A program made the position numbers and the translations under genes. Source: Dehalococcoidia bacterium (GTDB lineage: Bacteria; Chloroflexota; Dehalococcoidia; Lucifugimonadales; UBA3495). Taken from it: a stretch of 64,000 nt of DNA. The DNA lies in the NCBI GenBank assembly GCA_045562555.1, contig JBJKVO010000016.1, forward strand, positions 48,474-112,473, written 5' to 3'. Shown here one piece after another: positions 27,845 through 41,030 of the stretch (its first letter is position 1; every line of letters starts with the position of its first letter). The notes under the pieces are model-generated. The model saw only the letters and a list, made by a program, of their open reading frames with translations, was not told the origin of the DNA and ran no database searches.

Positions 27845-29014
27845 ATGATAAAAAGATTTTCAGTGTTTTACGTAGGGCAAATCGATCTTGATAATGTTGG
27901 GCATGACGGAACAGCTCCGGATGACCGAAAGTATTCAAATGATCAATTAATCCAAGCGTATTATAACGCCGAAGAGCTCGCTAAACATCTCGATACTCTG
28001 GGATATTATGCAATGTGGGGCGCAGAACATCATTTCCAACGAGAAGGATATGAGTGTTTCCCTAATTTAATACTACTAGGAGTCCATTTAGCCGGTATAA
28101 CTAAAAACTTAAAATTTGGTAATTCGTTCAATATTGTTCCAATGTGGCATCCTTTGCGATTGGCTGAAGACTTTGCAATGGCAGACGTAATGACAAAAGG
28201 GAGAATGATATTTGGTGTTGGTAGAGGATATCAGAGTAGAGAAGTCGAAACCTTTGGGGCTCCTTTGTTGGACAGAGACAAGAACAGAGAATTGTTCGAA
28301 GAACAAATAGAAATAATTTTGAAAGCATTTAATGAGGAAGCCTTCTCACATAAAGGTAAACATTACACTATTCCTGCAGATGTTGAATTCAGAGGTTACG
28401 ATTTAGAAGAAATTACTATGGTGCCTCGGCCCATAAATCTTCCTGTGGAAATATGGCAACCGGTTTCTAGTGGCAATTCGATTAAATTTGCTGCAAGGAA
28501 AGGAATCAAAATCGTGATTGCTTTGACTGGTGAAGCTATAGTGGATCAATTCATGACAGAATATCAGACTGCTGCAGGTGAAGAAGGGTCAAAATTAGAA
28601 TTAGGACAAGACACATGTTTGGGATTCGGGTTTTGTATAGGTGATAGTCTTGAAGATGCAATAGAAAAAGTAAGGCCATACCATGATGAAAGATACAAAT
28701 GGTTCGCTCCTTTCGGTTTTGTGAGATATATGGATGAGCAAGGAAGGATGTGGGGGACCCCAGGGGCTCCTACACGAATGCCTAAGGTGGAAGATGGAGT
28801 CGAACAAAAGGCGTGGTTGTGTGGTACTTCGGACGAGATTGTTGATACACTGAAGCATTTCGAAGAGAAATATCCGGGCTTAGAAGACATTGTCCTGCAA
28901 TGGCCTGAAGGGATGCCATGGACGGAATTTCAGGAACAATTAACTAGATTTGCTAAGGAAGTAATGCCGCAATTTAATACGGTGGACTCAGATGTGGTTG
29001 TGGCGGATGATTAG
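27845..29014 (+). CDS. LLM-class (luciferase-like) flavin-dependent oxidoreductase
   Basis: GAEHHFQREGYE, HPLRLAEDFAMADVMTKGRMIFGVGRGY are typical of bacterial luciferase-like monooxygenases. 389 aa. Confidence 0.82.
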   Translation: MIKRFSVFYVGQIDLDNVGHDGTAPDDRKYSNDQLIQAYYNAEELAKHLDTLGYYAMWGAEHHFQREGYECFPNLILLGVHLAGITKNLKFGNSFNIVPMWHPLRLAEDFAMADVMTKGRMIFGVGRGYQSREVETFGAPLLDRDKNRELFEEQIEIILKAFNEEAFSHKGKHYTIPADVEFRGYDLEEITMVPRPINLPVEIWQPVSSGNSIKFAARKGIKIVIALTGEAIVDQFMTEYQTAAGEEGSKLELGQDTCLGFGFCIGDSLEDAIEKVRPYHDERYKWFAPFGFVRYMDEQGRMWGTPGAPTRMPKVEDGVEQKAWLCGTSDEIVDTLKHFEEKYPGLEDIVLQWPEGMPWTEFQEQLTRFAKEVMPQFNTVDSDVVVADD

Positions 29015-29888: not shown

Positions 29889-30068
29889 GTGAATAAAGAT
29901 ATATTGAATGTTTTGGCGTGTCCTGTTTGTAAAAGTGACTTGTCCTTGGAAGATGAACAGATAGAAGCAGGTAAAGTTGTTTCGGGCTATTTAGTTTGTG
30001 GAGGGTGCAGTGAGAGGTATCCTGTTATAGATGGAATCCCTAACCTGCTCCCTCCAGACCTCAGGTGA
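29889..30068 (+). CDS. Trm112-family zinc-ribbon-like small protein (59 aa; below the ORF-track cutoff)
   Basis: GTG at 29889 lies 5 nt after GAGGAG. The translation MNKDILNVLACPVCKSDLSLEDEQ...GYLVCGGCSERYPVIDGIPNLLPPDLR has the CPxC...GIP signature of Trm112/DUF343 proteins. TGA at 30066-30068. Confidence 0.7.
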   Translation: MNKDILNVLACPVCKSDLSLEDEQIEAGKVVSGYLVCGGCSERYPVIDGIPNLLPPDLR

Positions 30069-30614
30069 TTAATAACCTACTGTCAAGGTTCTGATTATTA
30101 TAGGAGCTAGCTCTTCGGCTCTCGCTCTTAAAGTTTCCCTGTCCAGATTTCCGATGGGATGTTGGGTAAATATTGTAGGATAGTTATCGGCTCCCCAGAG
30201 CTTGGCCATTGCGGCTGCGGTTTGGACAAACCTGTCAGTGCAAATCGTAGCGGAAGGGACGCCTTGTTTCTCTGAATGTATTCCGTCGTGCACACTGCAC
30301 GCGCTACAGGATCCTCAATCCCCGATTGCTATTATGATTGCATCTGTAGCTTTAGCTAATTCTTCTAGTTCAGCCGGGTCAGCAGGTTTGGATGCGCTGG
30401 GCTTCTTAAGCCAGGAGATGCTATTTACTTCGTATTTTTCGGTAAGCACTGCAGCGATTTCCTCCAGAAGCACATCAGCATTTCTTTTACTGTCATCTAT
30501 CAAACCTATATTAGCACCGGCGATTGTAGGTATTCTAGGGGCTCCTTCGAAAGCAGGTACTATAGCTTCTGTTGTGGGGTCTACCAATGTGAAAGTTTCT
30601 TTTACGTTGACCAT
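30069..30614 (-). CDS. Predicted selenoprotein, UGSC-type (in-frame TGA at 30317-30315 read as selenocysteine); 181 codons
   Basis: Track ORFs 30315-30614 and 30069-30293 share strand and frame. Only a TGA plus 7 sense codons separate them. Read-through gives ...DAIIIAIGD-U-GSCSACSVHDGIH.... AAGGAG RBS before the ATG at 30614, and none before the second ORF, whose 'M' is an internal GTG. Confidence 0.72.
30287..30301 (-). promoter_or_regulatory. Candidate bacterial SECIS apical hairpin
   Basis: The mRNA sequence CGUGCA-GUG-UGCACG (6-bp stem; the G/U-containing loop can open to AGUGU) begins 14 nt after the UGA. A possible closing helix is GUAGCG (30307-30302) with CGCUAC (30252-30247). Confidence 0.35.
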
Positions 30615-30624
30615 AATTCTCCTT

Positions 30625-31695
30625 CTAAACCTGGAATGATTTGGTTGTAGATGTTGAGGACACTTTAGGACCCCAACTCGGTATCACTGAAGACATATCC
30701 GCTTCTTCTCCTCCGGCGAATACTACCATTATATCGTCTGGATTCTCTATCAAGTGTATAAATTCTCGAGAATCGGATTCAATAATCTCGCCAGGTAATA
30801 CCAAAGCTGTCTTCAAGTCGTATTTTGATTTTTTGATCCGTTTATGTAAGTGACTCTGGATGTCTTGTTTACTCCAGTCGCTCCACAAAGAACTGTGACC
30901 AGCAATTGTAACTACTATTTCGCCCTGCCGTACCCCGGTTTCAGATTTACCCACTGATCCAGATGTTGACATAGAAGTTCCAAGAGAAGAGGCTGCATCC
31001 GCGATACAATGAAGGATAGCCTCAGGTTTTCCAACGGACCTTACTTGTCTGGGCGACTCACCTGCAAATGCCGTAACAGTACTGGTATTTGCAGAGTATC
31101 CTTTCTGTACGCTTAGAGGATCCCAGTGAGTTTCGGTTTGCGCTTCCGCTATACAATATGAATATTTGCCTGGATGACCTATGACTGACCTGTCAAATAG
31201 TCCGGGTATTGCAGCGCAAGCATTCATGAGAATTAATCGAATGCTCCTGCCAATTGTTGCGTTAGCCCGGTTGCCTGGTCCAAAGAGGTTATTTCTCGAA
31301 TTCAATCCTATTTTTTGTACTATCGGTCCGTTGAAAATCAAGAGTATCCCAGCGCCTCCTAAGCTCGAAGATGGTCCTATTAGATTGAACTTAGGATCTA
31401 ATATTGCCTCGGTTGCTGCGATCACCGCAGGGAAATGCTCAGGGAGGCACCCTGCCATTACAGCATTCGCTGCTACTTTATCTAATGTTATGAGTCGCCG
31501 GCGTTCAGGAATCTCGCCAATTACATGGGTTCCTGGCAAGTGAACGCCGCTGAGGAATTCGTTGACTCTTTCGGATGTAGGTGGGACTACAGGAAGTCCA
31601 TCTGTCCACCCAAGTTCATAACAACTCTCTATACCGGATAAAGTATCGTCAAATTCTACTTGGACTGTTTTGGTGTCAGGTTGGCTGTCACTCAT
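30625..31695 (-). CDS. Conserved-looking protein of unknown function (356 aa)
   Basis: Its start overlaps the upstream stop (TAATG at 31695). Its stop overlaps the RBS of the selenoprotein gene. The GWTDGLPVVPPT motif is noted, but I cannot assign a family. Confidence 0.6.
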   Translation of the reverse strand: MSDSQPDTKTVQVEFDDTLSGIESCYELGWTDGLPVVPPTSERVNEFLSGVHLPGTHVIGEIPERRRLITLDKVAANAVMAGCLPEHFPAVIAATEAILDPKFNLIGPSSSLGGAGILLIFNGPIVQKIGLNSRNNLFGPGNRANATIGRSIRLILMNACAAIPGLFDRSVIGHPGKYSYCIAEAQTETHWDPLSVQKGYSANTSTVTAFAGESPRQVRSVGKPEAILHCIADAASSLGTSMSTSGSVGKSETGVRQGEIVVTIAGHSSLWSDWSKQDIQSHLHKRIKKSKYDLKTALVLPGEIIESDSREFIHLIENPDDIMVVFAGGEEADMSSVIPSWGPKVSSTSTTKSFQV

Positions 31696-32642
31696 TATCT
31701 GACTCTGGCGTATTTGGACAGACTCCTCATTTCGCGAGGTTGGTCTAAATGAGAGCCTCTGATTGTGTATGACACTTCAGATACATAGATTGCTCCTGTA
31801 GAGTCTACTGCTATTCCGTGAGGAGCTATAAACTGTCCAGGACCTTCCCCTTCTTCTTTGTCTCCAAAGACACATACTCTATTTCCATCTAAGTCGTAGA
31901 TAGATACACGATGACCCAAACCTGGGGCGTCATCCACTCCACCCATTCCGTTTAGCTCGCCTATGTATATGTGGTTATCCCATAAGACCATGCAGTCGGG
32001 ACGATGAATGTTATTCCACATTGTTATGAAATTACCTTCTACATCAAATATTTGTATTCGATGGCATTCTCTGTCGACTACGTATACACGTTCGTTATCA
32101 TCTATTGCGATGTTATGAGGACGAATGAATTGTCCCGCATCGATTCCGGGCTCTCCCCAGGAAAATTTATATTCTCCGTCTCCAGTGTATACGTGGATTC
32201 TGGAGTTTCCATATCCGTCAGATATGTAAATGTCTCCGTTACTGGGTCTAATAGCAGCGGAAGTAGGCCTGTTGAAAGGTTGTCCACTCCATCTGGGTGC
32301 TGGATGGTTTCGTTCTCCGATTTCCATCAATTTTTCTCCGGAAGTGGAGAATTTTTGAATGGTATGGATACCGTCATCTGCTGCGAGCAATGAATCGTCG
32401 TGAGCGATGTACAAACCGTGTGTTCTGTTTTCGCTGAATTCTCCTTGGCCTATAGATCGTAGGTAATTACCTTCTTGGTCAAATACCATTATTGGTTCCG
32501 GTCCTCTAGTGAGAACAAATACTTGGTCGTTAGAGTCGCATACTACTCCTGGGCATTCTAACAACCTCTTTCCTTCTGGCAATTTAACCCAATCCTCTAC
32601 AAATGTGTATTGGAAATCACCTTGTCCGTATATTTCGCTCAT
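31695..32642 (-). CDS. NHL-repeat six-bladed beta-propeller protein (peptidyl-hydroxyglycine lyase-like)
   Basis: Repeated GxGxGQFxxPHGIAxD-type blades (GQFIRPHNIAIDDNERVYVVDRECHRIQIFD; GQFIAPHGIAVDSTGAIYVSE). GGAGG RBS. Confidence 0.75.
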   Translation of the reverse strand: MSEIYGQGDFQYTFVEDWVKLPEGKRLLECPGVVCDSNDQVFVLTRGPEPIMVFDQEGNYLRSIGQGEFSENRTHGLYIAHDDSLLAADDGIHTIQKFSTSGEKLMEIGERNHPAPRWSGQPFNRPTSAAIRPSNGDIYISDGYGNSRIHVYTGDGEYKFSWGEPGIDAGQFIRPHNIAIDDNERVYVVDRECHRIQIFDVEGNFITMWNNIHRPDCMVLWDNHIYIGELNGMGGVDDAPGLGHRVSIYDLDGNRVCVFGDKEEGEGPGQFIAPHGIAVDSTGAIYVSEVSYTIRGSHLDQPREMRSLSKYARVR

Positions 32643-32653
32643 GTTACTCCTCC

Positions 32654-32677
32654 ATTTTTATTTTTATTTTTATTTTA
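32654..32677. repeat. Hexamer A/T-tract tandem repeat (ATTTTT x4 on the plus strand)
   Basis: ATTTTTATTTTTATTTTTATTTTA spans the GMC gene stop and the gap before the NHL gene. On the coding strand it reads CTA AAA TAA AAA TAA AAA TAA AAA, three in-frame TAA stops. Confidence 0.9.
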
Positions 32678-34265
32678 GTAATGAGTTTCCTTCCCCTTGT
32701 ATATAATCCGCGGTTCGTAGTGCAAGAGCATGAATGGTAGGTGTTGGGTTTATGCAAGCACCAGTTGTGAATACACTGCCATCAACTATAAAAAGATTCG
32801 ATACATCATGGGTTTTGCACCAACGGTCCACTACAGATGTTTCGGGATTTGTTCCCATTTTGGCTGTGCCTAGTAGGTGCCATCCTGTATTACGCCGCTG
32901 ATTGGATAGCATCACATCGTGAGCTCCAGATGCTTCCATAATTTCTTTCGCTCTGGCGACCCCGTGTTTTAACATTTTCTGGGTATTTTCGCTCAAAGTG
33001 TAGTCTATCTTAGGAGCAGGGATTCCGTCACTATCAGTCAGGACAGGATCTAAGGTGACTCGATTATGTTCCTCTGGAAGGTCCTCGGTCATGACAGTGA
33101 TCGTAGCGGTGTGCTGGAATCGCTCTTTGAATTTCGCATGGTGTTGTTCCCCCCATTCGACAGGAATACCTACTAGCCCACCCAATGCTGTGCCAATGGG
33201 TGTAGTAGCTTGGCTGGTTATCTGCAAATCATAACCTCTAAAAAATCCTCTATCTTTGTCTGTTTCGTAAAATTCTTGGCATAGCATCGCACTTCCTCTT
33301 GGTCCTGCTGGAGAGCCAAAATTCTCTTCAAATACTCCTACAACTCCTCCACAAGGGTGATGCATTAAGTTCTTGCCCACTAATCCACTGGAATTCGCTA
33401 GTCCATCTGGGAATTTCGCGCTTTTTGAATTTAATAAAAGTCTAGCGGTTCCAATTCCGTTACATGCAACTATAACTATTTTGGCTGTTATTTGCTTAAG
33501 GTCTCCTGATTGGTCATAGTAAAGAGCTCCAACGGCTTTGCCATCTTTGTCAACAAGGATCTCACGTACCCTACAATTGGTCTTTAGTGTTGCTCCTAAA
33601 GCGATTGCCTTAGGCCAATAAATAATGTCACTACTGGAAAATGACCGTAAAAAAGCTCCTCTGTCGGGCTCTCGTCCATCATAATAAACCGATGAATTCG
33701 CGTTGTCGGAATGCCACCAATGCCACCCTAGTTTGTTGATGCCTTTAGCTAATGCTTCTCCTGCGGCATTCAATGGTAATGGCGGAGTAGGGCGTGTAGG
33801 TTTGTCAGGGTATGCCGGGTCTCCGTTTAGACCTGAAACCCCGTGCATTTGGTCATTGATGTCGTAATAAGGTTCGACTTCCTGGTAGGAAAGGGGCCAG
33901 TCTTCAGCCACACCGTCAGTCGTCTTTACCTTGAAGTCAGAAGGGTGAAATCTTGGTATGTGCGAGCCATAATGAAGGGTGCTTCCTCCAACTCCGTTGT
34001 ACATTAAAGGAGCAATTGGAGAGTTACTGTCGTTAACTGGATAATCTTCCGGTAATTGTCTGATATTTGGATCTGGATGAAATGCGGTTTGCCAATAGAT
34101 AGGAGATATTGGAGATGTAGACGGGAACGCATCGTAAGGGAGCCAGTCCCCTTGTTCCAAGCAAGTTACTCGGATTCCTGCTTTTGACAGAGACCATGTC
34201 ACGGCTGCTCCCGAGGCTCCTCCTCCGATTACCAGAACGTCTGTATCGAGATTGCTAGTTGGCAT
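32670..34265 (-). CDS. GMC-family FAD-dependent oxidoreductase
   Basis: N-terminal DVLVIGGGASGAAV dinucleotide fold. C-terminal GTAKMG...VVD...HDVSNLFIVDGSVF is typical of glucose-methanol-choline oxidoreductases. Confidence 0.88.
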   Translation of the reverse strand: MPTSNLDTDVLVIGGGASGAAVTWSLSKAGIRVTCLEQGDWLPYDAFPSTSPISPIYWQTAFHPDPNIRQLPEDYPVNDSNSPIAPLMYNGVGGSTLHYGSHIPRFHPSDFKVKTTDGVAEDWPLSYQEVEPYYDINDQMHGVSGLNGDPAYPDKPTRPTPPLPLNAAGEALAKGINKLGWHWWHSDNANSSVYYDGREPDRGAFLRSFSSSDIIYWPKAIALGATLKTNCRVREILVDKDGKAVGALYYDQSGDLKQITAKIVIVACNGIGTARLLLNSKSAKFPDGLANSSGLVGKNLMHHPCGGVVGVFEENFGSPAGPRGSAMLCQEFYETDKDRGFFRGYDLQITSQATTPIGTALGGLVGIPVEWGEQHHAKFKERFQHTATITVMTEDLPEEHNRVTLDPVLTDSDGIPAPKIDYTLSENTQKMLKHGVARAKEIMEASGAHDVMLSNQRRNTGWHLLGTAKMGTNPETSVVDRWCKTHDVSNLFIVDGSVFTTGACINPTPTIHALALRTADYIQGEGNSLLK

Positions 34266-34279
34266 ATCTATAGTTCTAT

Positions 34280-35485
34280 CTAACTATGGTTCGCGTTTTC
34301 GAAGACAGCTGAGACTCCTTGTCCTCCACCAACGCACATAGTTTCTAATCCATAACGGTGACCTTCTCGGCGCATTTCGTGGAGCAATGTTGTTAAGATT
34401 CTGGCTCCAGTCGCTGCTATGGGATGGCCGAGAGAAATTCCTGAACCATTGACATTTAATATTTCTTCATTAGGAAGTTTCCATTCCCTTAATACAGCTA
34501 GTACTTGCGCGGCAAAAGCTTCGTTCAGTTCAATTATGTCCATGTCTTCTAATGAGAGACCAAGTTTGGACATCACTTTGTTAGTCGAAGGGACTGGACC
34601 GATTCCCATGGTTGCAGGATGACATCCGGTTACGGCCCATCCTCTTAGATATGCCATAGGTTCTAATCCTAGTTCTTCTAGTTTATCTTCTGCTACAACC
34701 AAGCACATAGAAGCGGCGTCGTTTTGGCTGCTGGCATTTCCGGCTGTAACTGTTCCGTCTTTCATAACTGGTCGAAGTTTTCCAAGGATGTCCATGGTAG
34801 TGCTAGCTCGAGGACCCTCATCTTTGTCAAAAATGATCGGATCTCCTCGTCTTTGGGGGATGGACACAGGCACGATCTCGTCAGAGAATTTTCCAGATTC
34901 CGATGCCTTAACTGCTCTCTGGTGGCTTCTTAGGGCATATTCGTCTTGTTCTTGCCTGCCAATTTCGTATTGTTCGGCAAGGTTTTCCGCTGTCCCCACC
35001 ATTCCCGCTATATGCCCGAATCTCTCTTCCGGTGCTATGGTGACCCTAGCTCGTTCTAGTCTGTCATGAAACTCAACGGTCCCGAAGCGAGCTCCCCATC
35101 TTGACTCGTTCGTATAATATTCCACATTACTCATGCTCTCGACCCCGCCGGCTACGACGACGTCAGCATTGTCAGTTTGAATTAACATAGAGGCGTTCAA
35201 GATTGCTTGCAGTCCGGAGGAACATCTGCGGTCTAGTTGATATCCAGGCACTTCTATTGGCAAATCCGATTTTAAGCCTGTTAGCCTTCCAATTGCAGGA
35301 TTTTCTCCGCTCGGATACCCATGCCCTAAAATCACGTCATCAATTTTGGTTACGTCTAAATTTGTATTGGCAATTATTTGTTTCAGCACGATTGCTCCCA
35401 GGTCTGCTGCAGAGATGGGTTTTAAAGATCCTCCAAATCCGCCAACCGCAGTCCTCAGCGGTGAAACTATTGCTACTCCTCGCAT
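34280..35485 (-). CDS. Acetyl-CoA C-acetyltransferase (thiolase II)
   Basis: Active-site segments RRCSSGLQA (Cys), NGSGISLGHPIAATG (His) and CVGGGQG (Cys). 401 aa. Confidence 0.92.
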   Translation of the reverse strand: MRGVAIVSPLRTAVGGFGGSLKPISAADLGAIVLKQIIANTNLDVTKIDDVILGHGYPSGENPAIGRLTGLKSDLPIEVPGYQLDRRCSSGLQAILNASMLIQTDNADVVVAGGVESMSNVEYYTNESRWGARFGTVEFHDRLERARVTIAPEERFGHIAGMVGTAENLAEQYEIGRQEQDEYALRSHQRAVKASESGKFSDEIVPVSIPQRRGDPIIFDKDEGPRASTTMDILGKLRPVMKDGTVTAGNASSQNDAASMCLVVAEDKLEELGLEPMAYLRGWAVTGCHPATMGIGPVPSTNKVMSKLGLSLEDMDIIELNEAFAAQVLAVLREWKLPNEEILNVNGSGISLGHPIAATGARILTTLLHEMRREGHRYGLETMCVGGGQGVSAVFENANHS

Positions 35486-35565
35486 ACTACACTCCTGTTC
35501 TCTTGGATACGAGCAATTCTACAAGTAAATTAAATGGTTGTCGAATTCAAAAATGATGTTAGGAG

Positions 35566-35594
35566 CTTTCAAAAACTTAAAAAAAATGTATAAT
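35566..35594 (+). promoter_or_regulatory. Putative promoter of tRNA-Ala
   Basis: A perfect TATAAT at 35589-35594 immediately preceded by TG, about 15 nt upstream of the mature tRNA 5' end. The -35 is weak (TTTCAA/CTTTCA). Confidence 0.45.
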
Positions 35595-35609
35595 ATTGTC
35601 CATCGGTAC

Positions 35610-35682
35610 GGGGGTGTAGCTCAGCTGGGAGAGCGCCTGCTTTGCAAGCAGGAAGTCAGGGGTTCGAGTCCCCTCTCCTCCA
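35610..35682 (+). tRNA. tRNA-Ala (anticodon UGC)
   Basis: Manual cloverleaf: acceptor GGGGGUG/CUCCUCC with the G3:U70 alanine identity pair, D arm GCUC-AGCUGGGA-GAGC, anticodon arm CCUGC-UUUGCAA-GCAGG, T arm AGGGG-UUCGAGU-CCCCU, discriminator A. It is followed by CC-G, so CCA is not fully encoded. Confidence 0.95.
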
Positions 35683-35720
35683 CCGAATTTCCTGGTTGTC
35701 GGAAAGGGACCAAGAGTATT

Positions 35721-36314
35721 ATGCCTGATATCAGTATAAGCGATAAGGTTCATACCAAACTTCAAGACATGGCGTTCTTACAAGAACTTACTGTAGACGA
35801 AGTATTGTCTGATGTTCTAGGAATTTCGGAAGTTTCTCGTACCAGAATCAATCCAAATGACATTGGACCAGCAGATCTGTATCAAACATTGGTGTTATTG
35901 GTTGGAGTAGCATACGGCTTGGATCGAGCAGAATTCTCTGGTCTGATAGGGACTGATAAAAAGAATATTACTGTCTCTCGTAAATTTGTGCAGGATCAAA
36001 TTTTTGAGATGCTAGGCTCCTCCTATTTTGTGCATCACAGGGATGAATTACAGAGTGTTTCTCAAGGACTGCCCCGATGGAAGAACAGAATTGGCAACGC
36101 GTTGGCTACCCTAACGAAGAGAGGAATGCTTGAGCATTCAAGAAGTGCCAGCGGTAAGCTGATCCCTGGCAGCTTCGTAGTCACTAAAAAGGGTTATGTG
36201 TATATAATGACCCACTTATTAGACAAAAGTCACCATTCTTATCGTGATATCAGTGTGAAATACCCTAGAGTGTATAGTGGGATAATAAGTTTAATAGACA
36301 AGATAAAACCCTGA
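35721..36314 (+). CDS. Hypothetical protein with a C-terminal Mrr_N-like winged-helix segment
   Basis: The track ORF 35538-36314 reads through the tRNA. The first plausible start is the ATG at 35721 (MPDISISDK...). LPRWKNRIGNALATLTKRGMLE...VVTKKG resembles restriction-system N-terminal wHTH domains. Confidence 0.5.
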   Translation: MPDISISDKVHTKLQDMAFLQELTVDEVLSDVLGISEVSRTRINPNDIGPADLYQTLVLLVGVAYGLDRAEFSGLIGTDKKNITVSRKFVQDQIFEMLGSSYFVHHRDELQSVSQGLPRWKNRIGNALATLTKRGMLEHSRSASGKLIPGSFVVTKKGYVYIMTHLLDKSHHSYRDISVKYPRVYSGIISLIDKIKP

Positions 36315-40584: not shown

Positions 40585-40966
40585 TAAATCAAGCTGGGTA
40601 ATCGCCCTCGAAAGAGGGAGGAAAGTCCGGGCTCCGATGAACGTGGCGCTGGGTAACTCCCAGGCACCAGTTTGACTGGTGACGGAAAGTGGCACAGAAA
40701 ATATACCGCCAGCTATTAGTTGGTAAGGGTGAAAACGTACGGTAAGAGCGTACGGCTTTTAGAGGTGACTCTAGAGTGGCTAAACCCCGTCAGGAGCAAG
40801 GCCAAATAGGGAACTGATGAATGTTCATATCGAATGTAGGTTCCGGGTAGGCTGCTTGACCCCAATGGCAACATTCCTAATTGCTAGGATACTATAAAGT
40901 ATGGGGCTAGATAGATGATTACCGCCTCTGATTGAGGTACAGAACCCGGCTTATAGGCTTGATTGT
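40585..40966 (+). ncRNA. rnpB: RNase P RNA, bacterial type A
   Basis: Universally conserved blocks: GAGGAAAGUCCGGGCUC (P4 5'), GGUAAGGGUGAAA, GAGCAAGGCCAAAUAGGG, GGGUAGGCUGCUUGA and ACAGAACCCGGCUUAU (P4 3'). P1 pairs AAUCAAGC (40587-40594) with GCUUGAUU (40957-40964). P2 pairs GGUAAUC with GAUUACC. Confidence 0.93.
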
Positions 40967-41030
40967 CGTCAACAAATTAAGTAACAATAGGATTGCCGAA
41001 TAACCAAAGGCAGGTGGGCAAGGAAGATTC

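Follow-up and report, generated by a model that had tools for sequence, protein, structure and literature searches.

Selenoproteins of the UGSC family have been listed as a family of unknown function up to a review of 2026, with no function assigned in the published accounts examined and with one partner noted in them, a conserved domain termed 'Unknown_1' (PMC1976440, PMC2398784, PMC9312934, PMC13188914). The fusion of UGSC to this domain was recorded in 2008 by Zhang & Gladyshev in the Global Ocean Sampling (GOS) data (PMC2398784), and an earlier guess in the literature gave UGSC a thioredoxin-like fold. Here, we describe a UGSC gene carried by a stretch of 64,000 nucleotides from a Dehalococcoidia bacterium (contig JBJKVO010000016.1, positions 48,474 to 112,473, referred to below as the window), together with the gene directly upstream of it, which encodes a protein of 356 amino acids (aa) that we name U356 and that is probably 'Unknown_1'. 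The two genes form an almost obligate pair, and we put at roughly 60% the probability that they constitute the functional unit, a two-subunit selenol/thiol-dependent reductase that is recycled by thioredoxin (Trx) and embedded in variable catabolic clusters.

The glycine and D-proline reductases provide one parallel. The grd operons carry trxB-trxA, and both the Grd and the Prd enzymes are recycled by TrxB/TrxA. As in GrdB-GrdE and PrdB-PrdA, a UxxC selenoprotein is here accompanied by a separate, putatively substrate-binding protein, trxB-trxA can stand in the same operon, as in Arthrobacter, and selenocysteine (Sec) forms outnumber Cys forms. On the other hand, UGSC proteins score about 12-19 bits against the GrdB (TIGR01917) and PrdB (TIGR04483) models, whose cutoffs are 300-602 (the window protein reaches 18.8 bits against TIGR01917, with a cutoff of 602, and other members 11-14 bits); these matches are recurrent and in register with Sec, and we would treat the apparent similarity as a lead and not as membership. 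Furthermore, U356 shows no similarity to the pyruvoyl proproteins GrdE and PrdA, equivalents of GrdA, GrdC and GrdD do not occur with U356/UGSC, and the pair is hosted mainly by aerobic heterotrophs of sea and soil and by haloarchaea, whereas the hosts of Grd/Prd are Stickland fermenters.

A second likeness is to MsrA/B-Trx fusions, ArsC and Prx-Grx fusions, since U356 combines a conserved Cys with, alternatively, a Trx-like fusion or a U/CxxC partner, and thioredoxin reductase (TrxR) is encoded near U356/UGSC. U356 is, however, unrelated to these Trx-dependent reductases in sequence and fold, and UGSC is predicted to be flavodoxin-like, not thioredoxin-fold. With the UGSC family itself, the window gene shares the GD-U-GSC motif, the in-frame UGA and the selenocysteine insertion sequence (SECIS), the partner U356 and the linkage to the Trx system being new here. 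As for the lineage, SAR202 genomes are said, following Landry in 2017, to possess paralogue-rich catabolic islands of FMNO/LLM monooxygenases. The window resembles such islands (LLM/FMNO, short-chain dehydrogenases/reductases [SDRs], CoA-transferases; Saw 2020, Lim 2023) in having luciferase-like monooxygenase (LLM), thiolase and GMC genes, and several paralogous U356/UGSC copies are found per Dehalococcoidia genome; the pair differs in not being SAR202-specific, as it also occurs in Proteobacteria, Actinomycetota and Halobacteria. The main texts of these two SAR202 papers (Saw 2020, Lim 2023) make no mention of selenoproteins, NHL, GMC or thioredoxin, and our literature search found SAR202 and 'selenoprotein' together in no paper.

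The U356/UGSC pair

The elements that make up the pair in the window are as follows.

30625-31695, minus strand: U356 (name given here), 356 aa, an open reading frame (ORF) of an uncatalogued family
30069-30614, minus strand: UGSC-family selenoprotein, 181 codons, Sec at codon 100 (PF24696, 3e-56; NF041046, 155 bits)
30315-30317, minus strand: in-frame TGA (UGA) read as selenocysteine, the homologous codon being TGA in related genes
30285-30303, minus strand: SECIS-like bacterial hairpin, from comparative pairing and covariation, core stem 30301-30287

Gene neighbourhoods were examined from both sides. Seeding with U356 yielded 80 genome loci from Chloroflexota, Methylomirabilota, Acidobacteriota, Binatia, Poribacteria, Alpha-, Beta- and Gammaproteobacteria and Actinomycetota; a UGSC gene with exactly one TGA adjoins U356 in 64 of them, nearly always downstream and on the same strand, while a Cys-form UGSC occurs in two more and a UGSC cut by the contig end in one (about 67/80 in total). 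When metagenome loci were instead found with the post-Sec half of UGSC, U356 lay directly upstream on the same strand in 60 of the 63 that could be evaluated, the two genes being separated by a median of about 23 nt. A DUF1326 gene separates the two in locus L004. The pair is also present in Archaea and cultured hosts, as UGSC-U356 in Natrinema and as U356a-UGSC-U356b in Halorientalis and Halalkalicoccus.

The same partnership is evident within single proteins. Among 51 long U356 representatives, 33 contain UGSC pieces, in both orders (UGSC-U356 and U356-UGSC), and at least 21 of these 33 fusions break exactly at the Sec codon. The UGSC domain is N-terminal to U356 in P0178, P0182, P0210, P0220, P0224 and others; the first UGSC half follows U356 and ends at the Sec position in P0135 and P0139; and the post-Sec half precedes U356 in P0153 and about 17 more. 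The original prediction had linked the selenoprotein functionally to the 356-aa protein, and the pair does recur overwhelmingly outside this genome, both in neighbourhoods read from either gene and in fusions.

Two further arrangements bear on the stoichiometry of U356. Haloarchaeal plasmids carry two U356 paralogues around UGSC (L178 3334-5996 and L179 3294-5993), and tandem U356-U356 proteins account for 8 of the 51 long representatives, bacterial examples of about 710 aa being P0123, P0130, P0132, P0136, P0140 and P0215. Together, the U356a-UGSC-U356b order and the tandem fusions suggest that U356 may act as a dimer or heterodimer. Divergent fusions of a UGSC domain with U356 are encoded in Vibrio europaeus (L172 6368-8053, 561 aa) and Sporomusa termitida (L173 6281-8005, 574 aa); in these unrelated genomes, aconitase-X/DUF126 dehydratase genes adjoin the fusion, with an enolase gene nearby in one and FAD oxidoreductase and MFS transporter genes in the other, and these neighbours may hint at what the substrate is.

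The window gene clearly belongs to the UGSC family, with 190.6 bits against PF24696 (cutoff 25, 3e-56) and 155.2 bits against NF041046 (cutoff 125). Its ORF contains the GD-U-GSC-SAC motif and one in-frame TGA, the read-through translation being otherwise open, and sequence and profile searches of the PDB with UGSC gave no match. The homologous position is TGA in 65/65 split UGSC genes that adjoin U356 in other genomes and is occupied by Cys in the UGSC of cultured organisms. Sec forms far outnumber Cys forms, both in the genome loci studied here (65 versus 2) and in GOS (255 versus 21; PMC2398784), which suggests that Sec is catalytically important.

Several variants of UGSC were encountered in passing. 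In P0270 and P0272, two full-length homologues that share 51-53% identity with the window protein, the motif is GD-R-SSC; its Arg may reflect a change of TGA to CGA, an error in sequencing or a faulty translation at the source. The Cys-type UGSC of the Arthrobacter sp. ERGS1:01 plasmid (L167 8045-8860) has a C-terminal extension of about 90 aa that is weakly similar to the NifU C terminus and contains CxxC. As for the Sec machinery, selB lies near the pair in Paracoccus ferrooxidans, and the only tRNA in the 64-kb window is tRNA-Ala.

The hairpin downstream of the UGA emerged only by comparison, a single-sequence fold of the region giving z = 0.41. Across 47 distinct sequences, and with 500 shuffles as the null, the core stem CGUGCA/UGCACG with the apical loop GUG (window 30301-30287), which begins 13 nt after the UGA codon (16 nt from the U of UGA), has 87% of cells paired. 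Compensatory changes occur at pair 19-29 (U-A to A-U, G-U and C-G) and at pair 21-27 (C-G to G-C), the loop is GU(G/U/C/A) with G23 and U24 invariant, and the observed covariation was reached by 0/500 shuffles.

This element also accounts for a feature of the protein. The third Cys of the window's UxxCxxC falls at a family position that varies among C, G and S. Across the family, the residue three positions after the UGSC Cys (C/G/S) covaries with the one three positions further (H/L), in the combinations Cys/His, Ser/Leu and Gly/Leu, and the corresponding codons face each other in the SECIS stem as UGC/CAC, AGC/CUC and GGC/CUC (window 30287-30310, S-A-C-S-V-H-D). Since both codons sit in the stem, the third Cys is constrained by the RNA and is no conserved protein feature. 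We therefore dropped UxxCxxC as a three-residue redox centre: of the 'UxxCxxC selenoprotein' first described here, the U-G-S-C Sec motif holds, and the third Cys, being C, G or S, is not a family trait. RNA structure in this case shapes the protein sequence, and the outcome imitates a 'CxxC' motif.

The partner belongs to a very large and unannotated family. Counted as cluster representatives at 50% identity with E<=1e-3, U356 comprises 4,632 clusters, with at least 8,000 clusters at 90% identity; all relatives examined are annotated 'hypothetical protein', RefSeq plasmid records included, and the nearest are proteins of SAR202/Dehalococcoidia metagenome-assembled genomes (MAGs). No match to U356 was found in Pfam or NCBIfam, 30 diverse members searched at a lenient E<=5 gave no consistent family, and sequence and profile searches of the PDB gave no match. 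The AlphaFold2 (AF2) model has a pLDDT of 89.5 and a pTM of 0.90, and the top PDB structure that Foldseek found for it reached E=1.3e-3 and a TM of 0.25; as this value is so low despite a confident model, U356 is without a real structural neighbour among solved structures. Foldseek matches to class I fumarase alpha and to 'Toblerone' amidohydrolases, with TM of about 0.25, were discarded as noise. The 356-aa protein had been singled out as unknown at the outset, and no known family emerged from these checks against family profiles and by Foldseek.

In an alignment of 30 diverse U356 members, D32, L34, P35, G82, P89, G123, R143, G149, R150, W191 and G328 are invariant, and C83, C181 and E184 nearly so. 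The motif GWTDGLPVVPPT spans residues 29-40 and includes D32, L34 and P35, the other motifs being NAVMAGC (C83), RANATIGR (R143, R150), CIAE (C181, E184) and AGG (G328). C83 is kept in at least 90% of the 30 diverse members and in 15/15 fusions. We propose that U356 is the catalytic or substrate-binding subunit, and, as far as conservation can tell, Cys83, Arg143, Arg150 and Asp32 suggest a small anionic (carboxylate) substrate.

Redox links and the proposed chemistry of the pair

The connection with the Trx system comes from fusions and from gene order. In five long U356 proteins, an N-terminal thioredoxin-like domain (CxxC or CxxS; DCPTC-type) stands in place of UGSC; the domains of P0205, P0255 and P0263 are above the Pfam AhpC-TSA cutoff, that of P0226 is a weak Pfam match, and that of P0191 is seen by alignment only, with no Pfam match. 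The gene order is trxB-trxA-U356-UGSC in Arthrobacter, trxB-SBP-SDR-U356-UGSC (SBP, solute-binding protein) in Variovorax, U356-UGSC-trxB in Roseovarius and UGSC-U356-TrxR-like (TIGR01292, 1e-68) in Haloterrigena, and TrxB is also present in five MAG/metagenome loci. No trx gene was found within the 64-kb window.

The geometry of the pair can be approached through a natural fusion. The AF2 model of P0178 (561 residues) has a pLDDT of 91.5 and a pTM of 0.92, and this high confidence argues for a defined arrangement of the two domains, as far as the prediction goes. Its UGSC domain is modelled as a beta-alpha-beta three-layer sandwich in which the C(U)GSC motif directly follows strand 90-96 and opens helix 99-114. 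Foldseek placed this domain, weakly (E 1e-4 to 1e-2), with flavodoxin-like proteins (azoreductase, lumazine synthase, flavodiiron Fld domain, PurE). The thioredoxin fold guessed earlier for UGSC is not what the model returned, the predicted topology being flavodoxin-like.

A working mechanism can be outlined in four steps: (i) Sec would be inserted at the UGA, aided by the SECIS hairpin; (ii) U356 and UGSC would associate into a physical complex; (iii) the Sec-x-x-Cys of UGSC, at the N terminus of a helix in the predicted flavodoxin-like domain, would provide the redox or nucleophilic centre of a reaction that takes place on U356; and (iv) an Se-S bond (Sec100-Cys103) formed in turnover would be re-reduced by thioredoxin/thioredoxin reductase with NADPH. 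The pairing, the fusions, the signals for Sec and SECIS, the Trx-system genes beside the pair in several organisms and the lack of known homologues are observed; complex formation, the direction of electron flow, the chemistry of a reductase and the class of substrate are inferred. The idea that the selenoprotein acts as a thiol/selenol redox partner is plausible with respect to U356.

Several observations weigh against a Trx-recycled reductase. TrxB adjacency is a minority arrangement, seen in 4/12 annotated plasmid regions and 5/160 MAG/metagenome loci, and the GrdB/PrdB similarity lies far below the family cutoffs. C181 of U356 is not universal, the fusion P0178 having Val there. The partnership has exceptions on both sides: 13/80 U356 loci have no UGSC within 10 kb (e.g., L017 and L019-L023), and lone Sec-type UGSC genes, which are rare, occur in L119 (5671-6225) and L097, with no U356 in the sequence upstream (about 5.7 kb and about 1.6 kb, respectively) or downstream. 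Such stand-alone genes imply that UGSC may have a second partner or act in trans. Finally, about three to five fusions (P0182, P0241, partly P0220, and the divergent Vibrio and Sporomusa proteins) have lost U/C-x-x-C and kept Cys83, so that the UGSC domain may also, or instead, be structural.

One of the loci without UGSC deserves description. In L019 (10001-13800), the U356 orthologue is 61% identical to that of the window; on reading the translations, the downstream genes look like subunits of 5-oxoprolinase (LamB/YcsF-like PxpA, KipI/KipA-like) and the upstream genes like MBL-fold, cupin, glyoxalase and RidA proteins.

These observations lead to an alternative that we consider unlikely, namely that the pair is stable and its chemistry is something other than Trx-driven reduction, with U356 as a Cys-dependent isomerase, lyase or hydrolase and UGSC in a structural, regulatory or S/Se-handling role. 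The fusions that retain Cys83 without a redox motif would fit such a role, as would the dehydratase and enolase genes beside the Vibrio and Sporomusa fusions, the 5-oxoprolinase-like genes of L019, and the NifU-like extension of the Arthrobacter UGSC together with the DsrE, TusA and cysteine desulfurase genes found close to the Paracoccus pair. Weak Foldseek matches to hydro-lyases and amidohydrolases point the same way, but with a TM of about 0.25, they are not meaningful. What speaks for reduction instead is that Sec is retained in >95% of uncultured members despite the cost of the Sec machinery, that U356 is fused to Trx-like CxxC domains and that trxB/trxA stand within the same operons.

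The five-gene run and the metabolic setting

In the window, the pair is the distal part of a run of five minus-strand genes, whose further members and surroundings are listed here.

34280-35485, minus strand: thiolase, 401 aa, first gene of the run (NF004853, 634 bits versus a cutoff of 551)
32670-34265, minus strand: GMC-family FAD oxidoreductase, 531 aa (Pfam GMC_oxred_N and GMC_oxred_C)
31695-32642, minus strand: NHL-repeat beta-propeller protein, 315 aa, six-bladed (Pfam NHL, 2.8e-18)
35516-35544, minus strand: sigma-70-like -35/-10 pair, possible promoter of the run (10/12 consensus positions)
27845-29014, plus strand: luciferase-like (LLM) flavin monooxygenase, 389 aa, candidate accessory (Pfam Bac_luciferase, 1e-43)
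29889-30068, plus strand: Trm112-like gene, convergent, 3' boundary of the run (NF038101, 88.5 bits versus a cutoff of 77)
35610-35684, plus strand: tRNA-Ala(TGC), upstream of and divergent from the thiolase gene
40586-40969, plus strand: class A bacterial RNase P RNA (262 bits)

The five genes, their coordinates and their four junctions were reproduced as first reported. The thiolase TAG and the GMC ATG are 14 nt apart; the 27 nt between GMC and NHL read AAATAAAAATAAAAATGGAGGAGTAAC; the NHL stop and the U356 start overlap as TAATG at 31695 (a gap of -1); and AAGGAG directly follows the U356 stop, as TAGAAGGAGAATTATG, with 10 nt remaining to the UGSC ATG. The spacings had been read as coupling signatures. 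They are real, yet not peculiar to these five genes: a rough gene call over the entire 64-kb window puts the median gap between same-strand genes at 9 nt, with 28/39 such junctions at <=30 nt. Gaps of 14, 27, -1 and 10 nt are therefore not distinctive, and we dropped tight spacing as functional evidence, since it is the norm of a compact genome. The window is very compact throughout, with many start/stop overlaps and a G+C of 40-46%, and higher-G+C Dehalococcoidia relatives have several additional genes inserted among the five within the same syntenic block.

Transcription signals leave a single transcript plausible. The putative promoter upstream of the thiolase gene is TCGACA, 17 nt, TAGAAT; promoter-like sites are not enriched in the region (20 found versus 15 +/- 4 in shuffles). 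A scan found no terminator-like site on the minus strand in 30069-35485, and terminator-like sites overall are not enriched over shuffles. A single five-gene transcript, even if real, would by itself not demonstrate a functional link.

At the ends of the run, the stop of the Trm112-like gene (which ends at 30068) and that of UGSC (30069-30071) abut with 0 nt between them, which leaves no space for a terminator there. The best NCBIfam match of the Trm112-like gene is an 'archaeal' model in a bacterial genome; an archaeal origin of the window, as this match might suggest, is refuted by the bacterial class A RNase P RNA and by the SAR202 homologues. A mechanical ORF of 258 aa (35538-36314, plus strand) spans the tRNA-Ala, and the true start of that gene is probably beyond the tRNA.

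The neighbours of the pair differ in how far they travel with it. The NHL protein scores 65 bits against PF01436 (cutoff 20), with NHL-domain matches along its full length. It had been called PAL-like, and the description as an NHL propeller is correct; the similarity to PAL (3fvz, E=4e-16, residues 50-202) is real but outranked by the NHL domains of TRIM71 and Thin (about 1e-29). In a paralogous Dehalococcoidia cluster (L064, L076, L080, L085, L086, L143), whose U356/UGSC pair is 36-38% identical to that of the window, the gene just after UGSC encodes an NHL paralogue of 39% identity, and in L096, L105, L148 and L166, more distantly related NHL genes stand beside the pair in different orientations. 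NHL is an accessory that recurs with the pair, but only within Dehalococcoidia.

The LLM gene, absent from the gene set of the original prediction, accompanies the pair across a wider range of loci than GMC or thiolase. Homologues 47-49% identical to it adjoin U356-UGSC in L026 (Methylomirabilota), L064, L076, L086 and L143, and distantly related LLMs sit in haloarchaeal U356/UGSC operons. In the window, the gene is about 1 kb from UGSC, and the closest solved relatives of its product are luciferase alpha chains only (1e-17). NHL and LLM are the accessories most likely to be tied functionally to the pair in this SAR202 lineage.

The remaining two genes encode recognizable enzymes. The GMC protein is above the cutoffs of PF00732 and PF05199 and has a VIGGGASG FAD motif (GxGxxG); its closest solved relatives are the alpha subunit of FAD-glucose dehydrogenase (6a2u, 6e-60, full length) and the large subunit of fructose dehydrogenase, and no ORF for a partner subunit (TAT small subunit, cytochrome c) is evident in 30-36 kb. 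The thiolase is an acetyl-CoA C-acetyl/acyltransferase by profile, with the catalytic Cys (RRCSSG), His (GHP) and Cys (CVGGG) motifs visible. Both genes are found only beside pair orthologues of at least 62% identity, in SAR202 (L001-L016, L087, L089), and they are absent from 70 more distant genome loci (except for two distant opposite-strand thiolases) and from 78/80 metagenome loci. Even in the relatives, they are often 1-3 kb from the pair; in L007, the gaps are 1.3, 2.5 and 2 kb, and in L004, an opposite-strand lipase sits between GMC and NHL. As the unrelated opposite-strand Trm112 and CopD-like genes are conserved equally well in the same loci, vertical synteny explains the presence of GMC and thiolase. 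They are lineage-specific neighbours and no part of the conserved system, although they may act within the same organic-acid/CoA-ester theme. Co-occurrence outside this genome is, in short, strong for U356/UGSC, modest for NHL and lacking for GMC and thiolase.

On these grounds, we find it improbable that the five genes form one 'oxidise, process, reduce' pathway in a single operon, as originally suggested. Such a pathway would agree with five co-directional genes having gaps of 14/27/-1/10 nt, one promoter-like site upstream and no internal terminator-like site, and with an order kept in SAR202 relatives at 62-85% identity; moreover, CoA-ester enzymes abound near the pair elsewhere, a theme that thiolase and GMC fit, and in Variovorax, two distantly related GMC genes stand about 5 kb from the pair. 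The Variovorax GMC is, however, only remotely related (6e-9), GMC and thiolase are missing from distant loci, other genes intervene in relatives (L004, L007), vertical synteny suffices for the order, as the Trm112 and CopD-like genes show, and tight spacing is genome-wide. Appealing as it is, the five-gene 'operon' results largely from the compaction of the genome in a streamlined SAR202 lineage. The module as proposed is accordingly unsupported, and what can be called an undescribed system is the uncharacterised U356/UGSC pair and not the five genes together.

The wider surroundings of the pair were summarized by clustering the neighbours in the 80 genome loci and in 12 annotated plasmid regions. 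SDRs occur in 20 loci, NHL in 14 and LLM in 13, and family III CoA-transferases occur in 14 loci of the genome and plasmid sets together. Other recurrent neighbours are Opp/Dpp-type ABC systems, MFS transporters, thiamine pyrophosphate enzymes and CoA-ester lyases/hydratases, together with TRAP, TAXI and TTT binding proteins and LysR or IclR regulators. Phosphosulfolactate synthase (ComA-family) genes were noticed near the pair in Arthrobacter sp. ERGS1:01 (L167) and Natrinema zhouii (L168). Paralogous copies of the pair can occur within one genome (L011 and L085; L009 and L081), and several paralogues per genome are typical of substrate-diversified catabolic enzymes. The best reading of these data is that the pair serves as a portable redox core within organic-acid/CoA-ester catabolic clusters of varying composition. 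That it could be a general antioxidant or thiol-repair system (peroxidase, sulfoxide or disulfide reductase) and not catabolic is very improbable, because, for all that U356 is fused to AhpC/TSA-family domains, Trx-system genes lie nearby and marine selenoproteins are mostly redox-defence proteins (PMC2398784, PMC13188914), the fused domains carry D-C-P-T-C of the TlpA/ResA type and not the peroxiredoxin PxxxTxxC, and the neighbours are overwhelmingly catabolic or transport genes under LysR or IclR, with several paralogues of the pair per genome.

Implications for the UGSC family

The preferred reading, a Trx-recycled reductase made of U356 and UGSC, can be carried further with decreasing certainty. 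U356/UGSC is best taken as a Trx-linked two-component thiol/selenol oxidoreductase, and there is a real chance that its catalytic subunit defines a new enzyme class. More tentatively, and with less than even odds, the pair could be an unrecognised class of Sec-dependent reductases that combines a catalytic subunit of new fold with a Grd/Prd-like logic and carries out reductive C-X cleavage or reduction of a carboxylate or CoA-linked metabolite; if true, this would account for the rank of UGSC among the most abundant selenoproteins of ocean metagenomes.

To conclude, UGSC, a long-orphaned selenoprotein of the ocean, gains in U356 a defined and testable partner, which belongs to a very large family present in both Bacteria and Archaea. 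The family also marks a gap in annotation, as it has neither a Pfam or NCBIfam model nor a solved structure or a convincing fold match. Cys-type pairs are available in tractable cultured hosts, including Arthrobacter, Paracoccus versutus, Roseovarius, Variovorax, Haloterrigena and Natrinema, several of which carry the Trx system in the operon.

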